From Paenibacillaceae bacterium (GTDB lineage: Bacteria; Bacillota; Bacilli; Paenibacillales; UBA4045), in contig JBBDIY010000044.1 of the NCBI GenBank assembly GCA_040880185.1, forward strand, positions 12,970 through 76,969: a stretch of DNA of 64,000 bases. Reading direction: 5' to 3'. The notes below the pieces were generated by a model. It did no database searches, was not told where the DNA came from, and was given only the letters and a program-made list of their open reading frames with translations. Both the position numbers and the translations under genes were made by a program. Of this stretch, positions 1,941 through 35,935 are shown one piece after another. Each line of letters starts with the position of its first letter. Position 1 is the stretch's first letter.

Positions 1941-4292
1941 ATGACGCGCCGTATTCCTTTATTGCCTTTAAGGGGATTACTTGTATATCCGAGCATGGTA
2001 CTCCACCTAGATGTTGGACGTGATAAATCGGTCAAGGCTTTAGAACATGCAATGGTGGATGATCATACGATTCTTCTTTGCTCTCAATCAGAGGTAAACA
2101 TCGAAGAACCGACTATGGACGACATTTACCGCGTAGGAACTATGGCCAAAATTCGTCAAATGCTCAAGCTACCGAATGGTACAATTCGTGTGCTTGTTGA
2201 AGGTGTCACTCGAGCTGAAATTGTTGAATATTTGCCTACGGAGGAATTTTTCGAAGTAGTAGTTAAACCGTTGCCAGAATTAGAGTTAGCTGATCCGGAG
2301 ATTGATGCGCTCATGCGCACGGTACTGAATCAGTTTGAGTACTATATTAATCTTTCGAAAAAAGTAACGCCTGAGACATTAGCTGCAGTGTCCGATATTG
2401 AAGAACCAGGACGGCTGGCTGATGTCATCTGCAGTCATTTATCCTTGAAAATTAAAGATAAGCAAGAAATTCTAGAGACAGTTGATGTTCGACTACGCCT
2501 GGAGAAGCTACTTGATATTCTGAATAATGAGCGCGAAGTTCTAGAGCTTGAACGCAAGATTAGTCAACGTGTCAAGAAACAGATGGAGAAAACACAGAAG
2601 GAATATTATTTGCGTGAACAGATGAAAGCGATCCAGAAGGAGTTAGGCGATAAAGAAGGACGTACTAGCGAAATTGAGGAGCTTCGGGCACAAGTCGAAG
2701 AGCTTACACTCAATGAAAAGGTTAAGGAGAAGATCGAGAAGGAAATCGATCGACTCGAGAGGATGCCGATTACCTCTGCAGAAGGGGCTGTTATTCGTAA
2801 TTATGTAGATTGGTTAATTGGATTGCCTTGGCATACGTCAACTGAAGATGATATGGATATTAAGAAAGCGGAAGATATTCTTGATGAAGATCATTACGGC
2901 TTAGAGAAGGCCAAGCAACGCGTTCTCGAATATTTGGCCGTTCAGCAGTTAGTTAAGAAATTAAAGGGACCTATTCTCTGCTTAGTAGGTCCGCCTGGTG
3001 TGGGTAAAACTTCTTTAGCTCGTTCTATTGCACGATCTCTAGGGCGTAAATTTGTTAGAATGTCACTGGGTGGCGTTCGAGATGAAGCTGAGATTAGAGG
3101 TCATCGCCGAACCTATGTGGGAGCAATGCCTGGTCGTATTATACAGGGGATGAAGAATGCTGGCTCCAACAATCCGGTTTTCTTGCTCGATGAGATCGAT
3201 AAGATGGCTATGGATTTCCGTGGTGATCCGTCTTCTGCTCTCTTAGAGGTGCTCGATCCAGAACAGAATAGTACATTTAGTGATCATTATATAGAGGTTC
3301 CCTTTGATTTATCCAATGTGATGTTTGTGACGACAGCGAATGCCGTTCATAACATTCCGCGCCCTTTATTGGATCGGATGGAGGTGCTCTATATTCCGGG
3401 TTATACCGAATTGGAGAAGCTACGAATCGCAGATATATATTTACTTCCGAAGCAGCGTAAAGATCATGGTCTGAATGAAGAACAATTACAGATGGACGAT
3501 GTCTCCATGCTCACGGTTATTCGAGAATATACCCGCGAAGCGGGTGTGCGTAACTTAGAACAACAAATTGCTACTCTATGTCGCAAGACAGCCAAGGAAG
3601 TAGTATCTGCACATTTAGTTGAGAAGGTTCTATATTCAGATCAAATTAAGGAGTACTTAGGACCACAGAAGTATCGTTATGGTATGGCAGAAGAGGAAGA
3701 TCAGATCGGTGCTGTAACTGGACTAGCTTGGACAGAGGTTGGTGGAGACACCCTCATCATTGAAGTAACCGTACTTCCAGGTACAGGGAAATTGACGTTA
3801 ACCGGCAAATTAGGTGATGTGATGAAGGAATCCGCCCAAGCGGCATTCAGTTATACGAGGTCTAGATCAATTCAACTGAACATTGATCCAGGTTTCCACG
3901 AGAAGAACGATATTCATATCCATATCCCAGAAGGTGCAATTCCTAAGGATGGACCATCTGCTGGAATCACAATGGCTACTGCGCTAATATCAGCATTAAC
4001 GAATAATCCGGTATCACGGCTTGTTGCCATGACAGGCGAGATCACACTTCGTGGGCGAGTTCTACCTATAGGTGGTCTCAAAGAAAAGGCGATGGCTGCT
4101 CATCGTGCAGGGATTAGAACGATTATTATTCCTAAAGATAATGAAAAGGATATCGATGACATTCCAGAGAGTGTAAGGAATGACCTGAAGTTTGTCGAAG
4201 TCATTCATATGGATCAGGTTCTTGATGAAGCACTGATTCATCCATTCCATCTGATTAAAGAACAGATCGCTATTGTAGGTGAACTCATATGA
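1941..4292 (+). CDS. lon: ATP-dependent protease Lon (LonA)
   Basis: ORF 1905..4292. It has a Lon N-domain start [15 protein letters not shown], Walker [10 protein letters not shown] and protease motif [14 protein letters not shown]. The start is uncertain: ATG 1941, or a GTG near 1926 after GGAGGTG. Confidence 0.95.
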
Positions 4293-4906
4293 ATCTGAAT
4301 ATTCACAATGCTGAGTTTCTGACTAGTGTTGCAACACTTTCACAATTACCTGAAGAAACCCTGCCAGAGATCGCTCTAGCAGGGCGTTCCAATGTAGGCA
4401 AGTCATCTTTAATTAATCGTATGCTCGGTCGTAAATCGATTGCAAAGATTAGTGGAACTCCGGGTAAGACGCAGATGTTAAACTATTATAACATTGACTC
4501 CCAGCTTTATTTGGTAGACTGCCCTGGGTACGGCTATGCTAAGGTCTCTCAAGTACAACGAAGACAATTCGGTAATCTAATAGAGAAGTATATGGTTAAG
4601 CGCGAGAAGCTTTGCTTAGTGCTACAATTGATAGATCTACGGCATGAGCCGTCCAAAGAGGACCTAAGTATGTTCTCCTGGTTGATTCACAATGGGATGA
4701 CTGTTTGTATTGTAGCTACGAAGGCTGACAAAATTCCGCGATCTCAATATCAGAAGCATCTGAAGATGATACGGAATGGTTTACATATGCCTGAACACAT
4801 TCCAATCATTCTGTTCTCATCAGTAACAAGCCAGGGTAAAGATGAATTATGGAGCTTTATCGAACAAACGATACAATTACAGGAGGAACAGCTAGTTAGT
4901 GATTGA
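4289..4906 (+). CDS. engB: Ribosome-biogenesis GTPase EngB/YsxC
   Basis: G1 motif [12 protein letters not shown], DxPGYG and TKADK motifs. It overlaps the lon stop by 4 nt. The lon-engB synteny is conserved. Confidence 0.9.
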
Positions 4907-18815: not shown

Positions 18816-19083
18816 TATGGAGCTTACTCCTTATGAGCTGACTATTGTTCCTATCATCGTGGCTCTAGTCCGTGTTCTTAGAATGTCAGGTGTGCCACCG
18901 CGCTGGCTTCCTCTTTGTGCAATTGCCTTGGGTATGATTAGTGGATTTGTATATATTGCTCCGGAAAACCCGAAGTTGGGTTTACTTTCTGGCATTGTCA
19001 TGGGTTTGATAGCAATTGGTGTTTGGTCTAGCGTTACGAATACGATAAAAGAGGACAGTACAACCTCCGGAATTGGCAAATAG
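18808..19083 (+). CDS. Phage holin (two or three TM helices)
   Basis: This 91-aa protein has hydrophobic segments IVPIIVALVRVL, LPLCAIALGMISGFVYI and GIVMGLIAIGVW and a charged C-tail. It overlaps the endolysin stop by 8 nt. Confidence 0.65.
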   Translation: MYSMELTPYELTIVPIIVALVRVLRMSGVPPRWLPLCAIALGMISGFVYIAPENPKLGLLSGIVMGLIAIGVWSSVTNTIKEDSTTSGIGK

Positions 19084-19101
19084 CCATTCCGGATTTTTTT
19101 T
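19066..19101 (+). terminator. Rho-independent terminator
   Basis: TCCGGAATTGGC / GCCATTCCGGA stem (one bulge) followed by T8. Confidence 0.75.
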
Positions 19102-19130
19102 GAACCGAGGTTCATTTTCTTATTACAGTG

Positions 19131-19313
19131 GGAATTTGAGAGTAACGGTAATGATGAGTAGAAGTAGGTGACCAAAGGAAGAAACTTCCGTTAGGAGATG
19201 GAAACTAGGTTACTTATGTCAAATAGCGGAGGTTTTTTCCGTTAAAACTGGAGTTTGAGAGTAATGAGGAGCAGTGGCAGGTGGCTAACGGAAGATGCTT
19301 CCGCTACTGGATT
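19131..19313. repeat. Two diverged direct repeat units, each ending in a GGAAG-N3-CTTCC hairpin, carrying TAACGGAA/TTCCGTTA motifs
   Basis: Unit A (19131-19199) and unit B (19250-19313) align over most of their length apart from a 6-nt gap (GGAaTTTGAGAGTAA...AGGTG...GGAAGA..CTTCCG.TA). The offset is 119 bp. Confidence 0.6.
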
Positions 19314-32340: not shown

Positions 32341-32380
32341 TGATTGTTATAGTAAATTTCTCAATGTGGAGGTACTTTTT

Positions 32381-33574
32381 GTGATTCGTACAAGCGATAA
32401 GTTGGTACTAAAACTAGTACCCCATCGGATTACCTCTGACAAAGATCATTACATTGTTGAACATTTATCAACTGGAGAATTCTACGAGATGCCTCGACCT
32501 GCTATCGAAGCAATGGAAGCTCTTGGAAAAGGAACTCCTCCTGAACAAATCGAGTTGGATTTGATAAAAAAATATCCAGATGAAGAGATTAATATGATGG
32601 ATTTCCTTTCTCAACTCAAGGATATGGGTTTCTTGGTTGATGATGAAGATGAATTTTCATACAAAGGAAACGAACTTGAACAGAAAAAGGATAGAGAGGC
32701 CGTAATCGTTATCGGTTCAAGAATTGGTCAATTTCTATTTCGTAGGCAGGTTATCCCTGTATATGGGGTTCTTTTTTGTGTTAATATTGTGTACTTTATC
32801 TGTCGTCCGGATCTATTCCCGCAGCCACGTGATTTGTTCCCCTTCCATTCAATGGTGCTGAGTATTGTAGTTTCTTTAATTGCATCAGTAACACTTCTCG
32901 CCATTCACGAAAGTGGACATGTTATCGCTGCGAGAACATCTGGTTTGTCATCTTCAATCCGCATAGGCCACAGACTATTGTTACCCGTCATCGAAACACA
33001 AATGCTGACAATTTGGCGTCTTCCTCGCGGGAGAAGGAATATTCCATTATTAGCGGGTTTATTTGTGGATCATACAATATTGTTCACATCATTGTCGGTT
33101 CTGATCTTCGTTCCATCACTTTCTCCGACTCTGCAAGGAATACTTGGGATGGTCGTTCTGCAACTCATTCTGATGTCACTGTATCAATGTATGTTCTTTA
33201 TGAAGACGGATTTGTACTATTTAATTCAGAACGCTTCTGGAAGCTATAATCTATTAGAAAACGCAGAGGGATGGCTAAAGGAAAAACTCCCTTTTGTCCA
33301 ACGGCAGAAAACGACTGTCATTTATGAGAAGGAACGAAATATCGTACGTGGTTATGCTATGTTTTATATTCTAGGTTTGTTATTTAGTGCGGTTGTCTTC
33401 GTATTCTACGTTATCCCACAATTTATGTATTCCTTCGCTATTTCCTTCGATCGCTTAATGAATCCATCGCCCACCTCCATGAAAGCCGATGCTATCATCT
33501 TTTTCGCTCAGTTTATTGTTTATGTAGGCGTATTAATGTTTAGCTGGAGTAAGAAATTCACACAACCCCAATAA
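32381..33574 (+). CDS. PqqD/RRE-like N-terminal domain fused to a polytopic HExxH membrane metalloprotease-like domain (M50-like)
   Basis: The N-terminal ~85 aa (LVPHRITSDKDHYIVEHLSTGEFYEMPRPAIEAMEALGKGTPPEQIELDLIKKYPDEEINMMDFLSQLKDMGFLV) has the PqqD pattern: beta strands, then a winged helix ending in a FL..L...G.L pattern. About 6 TM helices follow, with AIHESGHVIAA in the membrane. GGAGG lies 8 nt before the GTG at 32381. Confidence 0.6.
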   Translation: MIRTSDKLVLKLVPHRITSDKDHYIVEHLSTGEFYEMPRPAIEAMEALGKGTPPEQIELDLIKKYPDEEINMMDFLSQLKDMGFLVDDEDEFSYKGNELEQKKDREAVIVIGSRIGQFLFRRQVIPVYGVLFCVNIVYFICRPDLFPQPRDLFPFHSMVLSIVVSLIASVTLLAIHESGHVIAARTSGLSSSIRIGHRLLLPVIETQMLTIWRLPRGRRNIPLLAGLFVDHTILFTSLSVLIFVPSLSPTLQGILGMVVLQLILMSLYQCMFFMKTDLYYLIQNASGSYNLLENAEGWLKEKLPFVQRQKTTVIYEKERNIVRGYAMFYILGLLFSAVVFVFYVIPQFMYSFAISFDRLMNPSPTSMKADAIIFFAQFIVYVGVLMFSWSKKFTQPQ

Positions 33575-33595
33575 TAGTAGTTTAAAACATAGAAA

Positions 33596-33620
33596 CCCAC
33601 TCTTCGAAAGTGGGGGAATT
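33596..33620 (+). terminator. Possible terminator
   Basis: CCCACT-CTTCGAA-AGTGGG hairpin followed by GGAATTTT. The T tract is weak. Confidence 0.45.
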
Positions 33621-33803
33621 TTGCTGTCAAATTAATTGTGCATACGTAAATTCATAGAAAGGACGTGAAGTGTTATTAATGGGGATGATTGCATTATTGC
33701 TAGCAATGGGCTTGTGAGCCTCCCTGAATCTATGATAACGGAGGACATACTCAGGGAAGATCTTCAATTTTTAAATAATGAAAATATGATTACGAATAAT
33801 TTA

Positions 33804-34471
33804 ATCTGACTATGCACTTAACTCAGGACTTACCCACTTACAGGGGAATTTCCCGTAATTACGCACCTATCCGATGCATACACCCATTCATATCGAAATA
33901 GGCAAACGAGAATTCATTAAATTGCAAAAGGGGATACTCGCCATTCATTTAGCGTAATGCCGATTCTCTAATGATTCGATTTACCTGCTGAAGGAGGCCT
34001 TTTCGCGTATTTAGTCTACTCCGGTTGCGTTAATTATTTCATTGTAACTGGTCAATAGGCAATAAAGACAACCCCGTTGCGTTAATATCATATCCCCTTA
34101 GCAACATTCGTCTTAAGATCCATCTACATTTACAATTGTCCCCTACAAGTGGGTAAGTCCTGCTTAACTCAGGGAGCAGATTCTGTAACGGAAATAGGAG
34201 CTCTTATTTCGCGAAAACATGCTGTTTTCAAATTCTAACGGAAAGGGGAGCACGTTATTTGATCGCTTGGAACCAGAATGTGCGAAATATTGCAAAATAA
34301 CGTCTCTGGTTTCCGTTACGTTTTTAGAAAGTATGATTTATGGATGATAACGACTCTGTGTTCCGTTAGAGGTATCATGATCATCGAACGCTTTCATCAC
34401 TGTATGCAAAGTCGAATCAGGCCAGATGATGTCCCATTGTCAAAAGTTCTGAGTTAAGTGCATAGTCAGAT
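33804..34471. mobile_element. MITE-like non-coding element (outer) with perfect 23-bp terminal inverted repeats
   Basis: ATCTGACTATGCACTTAACTCAG at 33804-33826 is the exact reverse complement of 34449-34471. No ORF of 60 aa or more lies inside. The flanks are AT-rich (AATTT-like on both sides). Confidence 0.6.
33824..34162. mobile_element. Second MITE-like element (inner, 339 bp) nested in the left end of the outer one
   Basis: The TIRs are CAGGACTTACCCACTTACAGGGG (33824-33846) and the reverse complement of 34140-34162 (21 of 23 match). It is flanked by the 7-bp direct repeat CTTAACT (33817-33823 and 34163-34169), consistent with a target-site duplication. Confidence 0.6.
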
Positions 34472-34693
34472 AATTTTATAGAAATTTACCCTTACCACAG
34501 TAATTTAGTAATCAATTATGAGTAGGTATGAATTTGAAGAATTGTTTGAGGAACTTCCTAAGATAGAAGGGTATAGAGATGATTATGTTCGTGAGTTAGG
34601 TTGGTTTTGGATGAAAAGATATTTGAAAAAAGAATAATCTCATCTTCACCTTCATACTGTTTAAGTAACATGAAGGACAAGGGGAGAGCTCAG

Positions 34694-35935
34694 ATGAGTA
34701 AGGCGCGGATCACATATCGATTTGACCAGGAAACGCAGCGTAAACCGATGGAAGCAGAATTTGTCCAGAGAGATCGGCTTCAGAATTCAGCACCAGCGGC
34801 GGGCAATGTGATTCCATTATATCAGGAAGAGCCAGAATACACGACACGCGATAATGGTGCTTGGCGTAGCCCCTTCGATGCAGAGACTGAACGTATAGAG
34901 CAATTAATTAGAAATTCTGAGATAAGAAAAGATGATGTTGGAGAACAACCGGTTACTGATCGAGGTACACCGACCTTCTATACCGCACCACAAGCTGAAG
35001 AGTCATTCCAGAACGTTAACTTCTATAACGAGCTTCCGGTTCGGGCAACCTATCGAAGAAGAGATAAGAATACCAACTGGTTTAGTATAACTACATCGAT
35101 TACAGGAGCAATCCTGACAGGTATCTTGTTAGGTATGTTCGTGCTGTCCATGTTCAGAGAAGATGCGAATCCTCTGCCAGATTCCAACGGACCATCAACA
35201 GCTGATCAAGGGCTGTCTGCTGTTCTGAATGAATCGGGGGAGCCCATTACTGATTTGAACAAAGGAGATACGACGAGCGGTACTGTGAAAGATTCACCAG
35301 CGTTAACAACGGCTATTATTCCCGAACAAACCTACTATCTCATACAGAATGGTGTATTCTCTACCTTAGAGGGTGCTAATGCAGCTGTGCAACTGTTGAA
35401 AGATATGGGATTATCTGGTGCTGTAAGTCAAGCAGATCAATTCAGTGTATTCGCTGGTGCTGCCTTGGAGCATGAGGATGCTCTATTAATAAGTCATTAT
35501 CTTCAGAATAGTAACTTAGATGTGTTCGCCAAGCCATTTGTTCTTCCATCAGTTCAACAAATATCATGGGCTGGTAAAGATGGTGATCAAATTCAAGGAT
35601 ATTTGGAAGAAAGTCGAAAGATCGTGAAAGTAATACTGAAGACGACTACTGCGGGTGTACAGGATATTAATTCTACCTTGTCAGATTCCGATAAGCAGTT
35701 AATTCAGCAGCAACACAAGCTCTGGACAGGAACCGCTAATCAGCTTGCAGTAGATGCACCAGATGATGTCAAAGCATTAGTCCAGCAGATGAATAAATCG
35801 TTAAACAGTGCTGTCCTCACAATTGAACAGTATGAGAAAAATCCGACAGAAGTTTATTTGTGGCAAGCACAAGCAGCGGTATCTGAACACATAATCGCTC
35901 AAAAACAGTTTATAGATGCCACGAAGCAGCAATAA
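34694..35935 (+). CDS. SPOR-domain membrane protein (SpoIIB-like by position)
   Basis: A single TM helix (WFSITTSITGAILTGILLGMFVL). A SPOR-like segment YYLIQNGVFSTLEGANAAVQLLKDMGLSGAVSQADQFSVFAGAALEHEDA. It occupies the spoIIB slot between folC and radC. SD GGGGAGAG precedes the ATG at 34694, within ORF 34601..35935. Confidence 0.6.
   Translation: MSKARITYRFDQETQRKPMEAEFVQRDRLQNSAPAAGNVIPLYQEEPEYTTRDNGAWRSPFDAETERIEQLIRNSEIRKDDVGEQPVTDRGTPTFYTAPQAEESFQNVNFYNELPVRATYRRRDKNTNWFSITTSITGAILTGILLGMFVLSMFREDANPLPDSNGPSTADQGLSAVLNESGEPITDLNKGDTTSGTVKDSPALTTAIIPEQTYYLIQNGVFSTLEGANAAVQLLKDMGLSGAVSQADQFSVFAGAALEHEDALLISHYLQNSNLDVFAKPFVLPSVQQISWAGKDGDQIQGYLEESRKIVKVILKTTTAGVQDINSTLSDSDKQLIQQQHKLWTGTANQLAVDAPDDVKALVQQMNKSLNSAVLTIEQYEKNPTEVYLWQAQAAVSEHIIAQKQFIDATKQQ

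Follow-up and report, generated by a model that had tools for sequence, protein, structure and literature searches.

Here we describe two nested mobile elements, and the repeat family to which one of them leads, in a 64,000-nucleotide stretch of DNA from a Paenibacillaceae bacterium (GenBank assembly GCA_040880185.1, contig JBBDIY010000044.1, positions 12,970 to 76,969 of the forward strand). This whole stretch is called the window below; positions follow its numbering, and L-numbers such as L002 or L009 are labels of comparison loci. Between a gene for a membrane protein and a gene for a SpoIIB-like protein of the SPOR family (34694-35935, plus strand), the window holds a 668-bp segment in which an inner element of 339 bp sits inside an outer element of about 320 bp, counted without the inner part, and the remnants of a small gene flank the whole. 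The interior of the outer element is a module of four similar units, which recurs across Bacillales genomes and metagenomes in association with one conserved gene for a protein of about 215 amino acids. We consider it likely that both parts of this picture are right, namely that the segment arose by nested insertions resembling MITEs (miniature transposable elements with inverted repeats), and that the outer element belongs to the module family.

The outer element ends in ATCTGACTATGCACTTAACTCAG, which stands at 33804-33826 on the plus strand and again at 34449-34471 on the minus strand, forming a 23-bp inverted repeat with 0 mismatches. These are its sole two matches in the 64 kb when up to 3 mismatches are allowed, and such a pair appeared in 0 of 100 shuffles. 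The inner element (33824-34162) has an inverted repeat of its own, CAGGACTTACCCACTTACAGGGGA at 33824-33847, pairing with 34139-34162 at 22 of 24 positions (21 of 23 by a 23-bp count), again with only two matches in the window and none in shuffles. It is bracketed by the direct repeat CTTAACT, the left copy at 33817-33823 and the right copy at 34163-34169. Neither the two inverted repeats nor the CTTAACT bracket is expected by chance. An earlier sequence-only reading of this DNA, made by a model without database searches, had described the perfect 23-bp outer repeats, the 339-bp inner element with its 21 of 23 matching positions and the 7-bp bracket, and all three are there; the identity between the direct repeats in fact runs to 11 nt, CTTAACTCAGG (33817-33827 and 34163-34173). 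It reads 11 nt because the inner element opens with CAGG, as does the outer sequence after the target, and the duplication is the 7-bp CTTAACT when the inner ends are taken as symmetrical.

Deletion of 33824-34169, that is, of the inner element and one copy of CTTAACT, rebuilds the left end of the outer element (...ATGCACTTAACTCAGGGAGCAG...), which had been claimed before and can be read directly from the sequence. Because this excision restores the outer end, the order of nesting is inner into outer. The inner insertion divides the left terminal repeat of the outer element (33805-33826 on the plus strand; 22 nt long, or 23 nt if A33804 is counted) behind position 33823, and the CAG at 33824-33826 that completes it today is contributed by the terminus of the inner element. 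The rest of the left arm, from the interrupted end to the module, lies at 34170-34185 (plus strand); beyond the module follow the right arm (34369-34448, plus strand) and the right terminal repeat (34449-34470, minus strand). No open reading frame (ORF) of 60 or more amino acids lies inside, just as the sequence-only reading had it: the longest has 59 (34278-34457), and when this ORF was used as a protein query for spurious ORF calls in other copies of the outer element, no candidates were found. Both elements are thus non-coding and shorter than about 600 bp, and both carry terminal inverted repeats and target duplications, the features by which MITEs are recognized. The inner element also contains a subterminal repeat that had been noticed earlier, GTTGCGTTAAT at 34024 and 34076, which with its preceding bases reads CC(G/C)GTTGCGTTAAT at 34021 and 34073, 52 nt apart.

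The sequence-only reading had missed two features of the outer element, its own 8-bp target duplication and its four-unit module. The first becomes visible in relatives, whose closest SpoIIB proteins are 60-74% identical, so that all comparisons run between species. In L002 and L004 an uninterrupted small gene (135 and 166 amino acids, respectively) lies between the membrane-protein gene and spoIIB; in L003 the two neighbours are 92 bp apart and the small gene is absent. Orthologous sites free of the outer element are therefore at hand, and the outcome that the sequence-only reading had named as speaking against mobility, a sequence with no empty site in relatives, did not occur for the outer element. 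Both flanks of the segment, up to 33804 and from 34471, align to the small gene of L002 and L004, and the two alignments overlap in exactly 8 columns. The bases concerned are TAATTTAA on the left (33797-33804) and TAATTTTA on the right (34471-34478), identical to each other at 7 of 8 positions and corresponding to TAAATACA in L002. Judged from these alignments, the overlap reads as the footprint of an 8-bp target duplication plus one later substitution. The outermost A/T pair of the outer repeat then probably belongs to the duplication, which sets the element proper at 33805-34470.

The 5' remnant of the target gene occupies 33714-33804 (plus strand), aligns to L002 4450-4547 and to L004, and retains a 31-aa ORF at 33714-33809. 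The 3' remnant (34479-34637, plus strand) retains a 39-aa ORF at 34518-34637; about 258 bp have been lost internally from this copy of the gene, and the SpoIIB-like gene lies about 220 bp downstream of the insertion. With this loss in the window, a frameshift in the L002 copy and the absence of the gene from L003, the target was evidently a gene already in decay.

The module occupies 34186-34368 and consists of four units of about 27 nt, two direct and then two inverted, with intervals of 50, about 60 and 50 nt from start to start. They lie at approximately 34182-34213 and 34232-34263 on the plus strand and at 34291-34322 and 34341-34372 on the minus strand, and their consensus is TCTAACGGA-N8-G-N-C-N2-TTATTT. 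On a position-weight matrix trained with heavy pseudocounts (a stricter, TAACGG-selected training set missed diverged units), the four units score 18.6-32, against a background maximum of 7 in the window. A BLAST comparison of the outer element with plasmids gave one weak match, and this match proved to have the same layout, in a replicon of Paenibacillus cellulosilyticus (L011). The pattern TAACGG-N43-45-TAACGG-N60-80-CCGTTA-N44-CCGTTA, for which the chance expectation in the window is 0, occurs in at least 120 metagenome stretches, 4 IMG/VR viral contigs and the P. cellulosilyticus replicon. Among the matches listed, the module has a length of 183 nt, the length found in the window, in 84 of 133 cases and lies outside long ORFs in 122 of 130, and a single assembly, SNQW01, carries at least 15 modules.

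What surrounds the module varies. Many related copies share merely the module plus 0-12 nt, and sequence comparison thus indicates that the family conserves the module and not the ends. The SNQW01-type copies are 286-322 bp long, have a 17-nt terminal repeat and the ends CACTAGCGTTGCATTAA, and are flanked by 9-bp duplications matching at 9/9, 8/9, 8/9 and 7/9 positions, with none in a fifth candidate pair. Elements of about 300 bp that bear a module, terminal repeats and 8-9-bp duplications therefore appear to be a recurring form, of which the window holds an example. The earlier claim of two nested MITE-like insertions is supported in part. The repeats, the duplications, the nesting and the empty sites of the outer element speak for it, yet the outer element departs from a MITE of the ordinary, end-defined kind: its ends are private and its interior is shared.

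The units themselves resemble each other more within a module (identity 0.60-0.66) than between modules (0.48). Likeness is no greater among units able to pair with each other (0.60-0.63) than in the direct pair A1-A2, which cannot pair (0.66). A selected hairpin is thus a poorer explanation than homogenization or a set of four sites that one protein reads. The 22-mers within the units have a mean self-complementarity of 35%; a few are perfect 22-bp palindromes and most are not.

Modules also occur in further arrangements. A different small element, with GAGRCTGTCGATTCATTG ends and a module of its own, interrupts a unit of a second module at its middle (TAACGGACAnnnn|end) and is accompanied by a duplication of about 5 bp; it was seen near 3549 in L062, 3790 in L017, 646 in L050 and 2093 in L117, and suggests insertions that target units. 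L117 also has an array with a 33-bp period that ends in GTCCGTTA, and in L045 and L098 two whole modules stand in tandem. The P. cellulosilyticus module lies within an 824-bp segment (L011 3583-4406) with 65-nt inverted repeats that are 85% complementary, which may be a nested or composite element. The window itself has a second, decayed cluster of module-type units in intergenic DNA at 19070-19310, with TAACGG/CCGTTA motifs at 19144, 19189, 19239 and 19286; the unit at 19217-19248 (minus strand) scores 19.2 on the position-weight matrix, compared with the same background maximum of 7.

The inner element has relatives of a different kind. When CAGGACTTACCCACTTRYAG was scanned against a set of genomes, one for each species, it matched three contigs of the Bacilli metagenome-assembled genome SMAG_U3605 (L006, L009 and L010) and one end in Cohnella silvisoli, so that inner ends, too, are present elsewhere. 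In SMAG_U3605 about 36 terminal nucleotides are the same as in the inner element and bound a multicopy element of about 370 bp with an unrelated interior (L009 1698-2067), and two of the three contigs terminate within the element, as repeats do in assemblies. The flanks of the L009 copy match at 6 of 8 positions, an imperfect 8-bp repeat. An Enterocloster match from the genome scan and all six viral matches were discarded, being one conserved coding sequence with no element end; BLAST against plasmids returned nothing for the inner element, and its 44-nt end gave one chance match only. No transposase was found beside any inner-type copy. On these comparisons, the inner element is best read as a MITE that would derive from some insertion sequence (IS).

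The sequence-only reading had called the two elements unrelated, which goes too far: GACT(T)A..CACTTA is common to the outer and inner terminal repeats, and a 10-mer of the outer repeat recurs beside an inner-type element elsewhere. In the window this 10-mer, GTGCATAGTC (GACTATGCAC on the other strand), lies in the outer terminal repeat (33804-33823), 6 nt from the insertion point; in L010 (198-240) the distance between GTGCATAGTC and the end of the inner-type element is 4 nt. A target preference cannot be claimed from two cases. Diverged module-like units also occur in L010, about 130 nt beyond the 10-mer.

Clustering of all ORFs within 4 kb of modules brought out one standout family. Its members have about 215 amino acids, lie a median of 26 nt from a module and, among the matches listed, occur at 9 of about 120 loci. 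By chance, a single-copy gene in a genome taken as about 5.5 Mb would be expected in about 0.2 of some 120 fragments of about 8 kb. A module begins 12-60 nt past the stop codon at 8 of the 9 loci and 329 nt past it in L110, and a second module often lies 110-270 nt upstream of the gene. The same holds for isolates: in each of four, from four genera, the gene is flanked by units, weakly so in Bacillus solitudinis. In their lineage-specific variable part, gene-adjacent units agree with the dispersed units of the same assembly, at an identity of 0.61 against 0.43, in 3 of 3 assemblies.

This gene family is large and conserved. At 90% identity it falls into at least 1040 clusters, and at 50% it has 474 representatives; the proteins share 65-72% identity across Paenibacillus, Bacillus, Virgibacillus, Oceanobacillus, Niallia and others. 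The gene is roughly single-copy, and most clusters are found on one contig each. Its NCBI name is 'transcriptional regulator', and searches of Pfam, NCBIfam, PHROGs and PADLOC returned no family, just weak winged-helix matches. In the AlphaFold model (mean predicted local distance difference test score, pLDDT, of 85; 81 for the N-terminal domain alone), the C-terminal domain resembles winged helices of the MarR, ArsR and eS25 types. The N-terminal domain has the order ααα-βββ-α-β-α and matches only PD-(D/E)xK nucleases, among them the R2 endonuclease domain, NGO0050, I-Bth0305I, Can2, arenavirus endonucleases and TnsA. E58, D70, E85 and Q87 are invariant in the family, and on our reading they would fit a D...E-x-Q variant of the nuclease motif.

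Some of the gene-bearing loci are unusual in themselves. In L096, tandem arrays of 50-bp units lie on either side of the gene in opposite orientations (1000-1715 and 2612-3200, with at least 10 and at least 13 copies). In L145 (Niallia oryzisoli, 2459-3970), a cassette of units, gene and units, about 1.39 kb long, is bracketed by a 60-nt direct repeat that is 95% identical between its copies and is the 3' part of tRNA-Ala(GGC). A tRNA-Ala(GGC) also adjoins the gene in L136 (B. solitudinis) and L101, and the association at these three loci looks like either an integrated mini-cassette or a conserved tRNA-linked site. Downstream of the gene in L137 (Paenibacillus lautus, 3766-4715) lies a 350-bp tandem repeat of 2.7 copies, 96% identical, in which each copy has two units; the repeat also includes a duplicate of the final 45 nt or so of the gene.

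Around the nested elements, two Mur-ligase-family genes, an HD-GYP gene and the gene for a membrane protein of 397-402 amino acids without a Pfam match lie upstream, and the SpoIIB-like gene, an SLH amidase, radC and mreB downstream. An identical SpoIIB is present on a single public contig, of 107 kb, which Logan assembled from SRR27977663, and NCBI has this protein from a metagenome-assembled genome of a Paenibacillaceae bacterium. An HESGH motif in the membrane protein (32366-33574) points to a membrane metalloprotease; this protein is the 'protease' of the sequence-only reading. A maf gene lies between a DUF4321 gene and radC in L002-L004 and is absent from the window's contig (37245-37710).

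We take the insertion, both target duplications, the nesting order, the family membership and the association of gene and module as established, and a simple history can be proposed on that ground. The outer element of about 320 bp would first have entered, with an 8-bp duplication, a small gene that lay between spoIIB and the gene for the membrane protein and was dispensable by then. A MITE of 339 bp with 24-bp terminal repeats would then have landed in the left terminal repeat of the outer element and duplicated CTTAACT. Since neither element codes for a protein, both would have been moved by proteins made elsewhere. In the case of the inner element a transposase would be the simple answer. 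For the outer element there are two options, and both could be true: a DDE transposase that acts on the ends and carries the module as cargo, or a module-binding protein. A transposase step is favoured by the 8-9-bp duplications, and a role for the protein of about 215 amino acids by the conserved interior and the link to the gene. We infer that this protein may bind the units and act in trans to maintain or disperse modules, as a RAYT does for REPINs. More tentatively, and with the odds in our judgement somewhat against it, the modules and the gene may form a previously undescribed repeat-plus-enzyme system of the Bacillales, a functional analogue of REPIN/RAYT built on a protein with a restriction-endonuclease fold in place of a tyrosine transposase, in which the outer element of the window would be one dispersed copy. 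In such a system, binding by the protein would lead to cutting or processing of the units, and this would let modules spread or persist along the chromosome. Neither the repeat nor the protein family was found described in an incomplete search of the literature, and 'undescribed' is accordingly provisional.

Several results weigh against these proposals. Target duplications are not known to be the work of a PD-(D/E)xK nuclease by itself, so that a DDE transposase may be what moves such elements, with the module as cargo. All structural matches of the N-terminal domain have E-values of 1e-3 or weaker, and the window holds no homologue of the gene. Neither element has another copy in 72 kb of the contig, and relatives of the terminal repeats or arms of the outer element, the right arm included, were found in none of the fetched loci and not in IMG/VR. 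The 8-bp duplication is AT-rich, has one mismatch and is read between species whose SpoIIB proteins are 66-71% identical, which makes it less clean evidence than an empty site in the same species would be. Finally, a full-length IS sharing either terminal repeat, which the sequence-only reading had proposed to look for, did not turn up. An ORF-bearing parent would end in CAGGACTTACCCACTT or, for the other element, in TCTGACTATGCAC; no transposase for the inner ends was found in the genome scan, plasmids or viral contigs, and none for the outer ends in plasmids, viral contigs or the neighbours of 130 modules.

A more conventional account takes the outer element for a common MITE whose terminal repeats are recognized by a DDE transposase; the module would be passive cargo or a separate repeat that landed in it, and the gene for the protein of about 215 amino acids would have no part in moving this element. 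In favour of this, a combination of terminal repeats and 8-9-bp duplications is a hallmark of DDE transposition. The ends of different module subfamilies are unrelated, which looks like repeated capture of the module, and related copies often have the module and next to nothing else in common. Against this, repeated capture of one 183-nt architecture by several unrelated MITEs would itself need explaining, a matching transposase is the very thing that the searches failed to find, and the tight link between module and gene, together with the lineage-specific co-variation of dispersed copies with the gene flanks, indicates that the module is not inert filler. On balance we think this account rather unlikely. 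A regulatory one seems improbable to us: the modules would be operator arrays of a transcription factor, the protein of about 215 amino acids, and the window copy a regulatory site upstream of spoIIB rather than a mobile element. Its appeal lies in the MarR/ArsR-like winged helix of the C-terminal domain, in four similar sites at fixed spacing, and in modules that are mostly intergenic and adjoin the gene as in autoregulation. The window copy, however, lies within a gene, has terminal repeats and a target duplication, and is missing from three related species; units also occur as tandem arrays of at least 10 and in units of about 290 bp with duplications, and the N-terminal domain, judging by its sequence, retains the invariant acidic residues typical of active nucleases.

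Two further readings were rejected. One takes the module for a structured non-coding RNA in the form of a long hairpin, with repeats that reflect pairing. Two direct plus two inverted units are able to form a nested hairpin, and the single-strand fold is somewhat more stable than shuffles (z = -1.9). Yet the likeness of non-pairable units, which equals that of pairable ones, leaves no signal specific to pairing, and this decided the matter; in addition, 33300-34900 gave no Rfam match at E up to 1, and the module is a near-palindrome found in both orientations. We give an RNA very little chance. An invertible switch is hardly credible at all: perfect 23-bp inverted repeats around some 300-620 bp just upstream of a gene could bound a segment that flips a promoter toward or away from spoIIB, but what lies to either side is a single interrupted gene, one half per flank, with an 8-bp duplication, on which grounds we dropped the idea. 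Nor did promoter-like matches exceed expectation (4 found, 4.9 expected from shuffles), no recombinase gene lies among the neighbours, and the interior belongs to a dispersed repeat family.

Locally, then, the event is a small one, in which a dead gene upstream of spoIIB gathered two mobile elements. Its wider interest lies in where the outer element leads, to a repeat family of fixed four-site layout, abundant in genomes and metagenomes of Paenibacillaceae and Bacillaceae and tied to one conserved, unannotated gene. Enzymes that live with their own dispersed repeats are so far best known from the RAYTs of Proteobacteria, and if the link between modules and gene is functional, this would be a second and mechanistically different case of such a host-resident enzyme. 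If it is true, a family of more than 1000 clusters that is now labelled only 'transcriptional regulator' would gain a name and a testable function. The modules matter for the annotation of Bacillales as well, as repeats that break assemblies and attract other insertions.

Among known systems, bacterial MITEs such as the Correia elements of Neisseria, RUP of Streptococcus pneumoniae and bcr1 of the Bacillus cereus group are the closest parallel to the segment itself, and nested insertion is known for MITEs. Like them, both elements of the window are short and non-coding, have terminal repeats and duplications, sit in intergenic or pseudogene DNA, and have relatives that are multicopy elsewhere. 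They differ in that no parent IS was found for either, and the outer family reverses the usual MITE pattern by conserving an internal module while its ends vary by lineage. The presence of one MITE group inside units, and of inner-type elements 4-6 nt from the same 10-mer in two genomes, recalls IS elements that insert into repetitive extragenic palindromic (REP) sequences, such as IS1397, with the difference that the inner element offers just two cases. TnsA of Tn7 has an endonuclease domain and a C-terminal winged helix, and the protein of about 215 amino acids, predicted to be a restriction-enzyme-like nuclease followed by a winged helix and found in a mobile-DNA context, is similar in outline. 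The fold match to TnsA is weak, however (PDB 1t0f, rank 50, E = 0.36), and the gene has neither TnsB nor TnsC nearby, shows no 5-bp duplication, and is roughly single-copy and flanked by repeats rather than carried inside a transposon.

A further comparison is with REPINs and their RAYT genes; the latter are approximately single-copy and housekeeping-like, and on their flanks lie the repeats with which extragenic space is filled (Bertels et al. 2017, PMC5581495). The two systems differ in their parts. A RAYT is an HUH/Y1 transposase of the IS200-like kind, whereas the protein here has a predicted restriction-endonuclease-like fold and a winged helix; REP sequences are imperfect palindromes of 20-40 nt, paired in inverted orientation, whereas the units here are about 27 nt long, for the most part no palindromes, and come in fours with a spacing of 50 nt; and, unlike REPINs, some module copies carry terminal repeats and 8-9-bp duplications. 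The modules have Bacillales as hosts. What the two have in common is the overall plan: a conserved, roughly single-copy gene is flanked by repeats that are also dispersed in extragenic space, the repeats come in inverted groups, and their variable part is specific to the lineage and common to the gene flanks and the dispersed copies.

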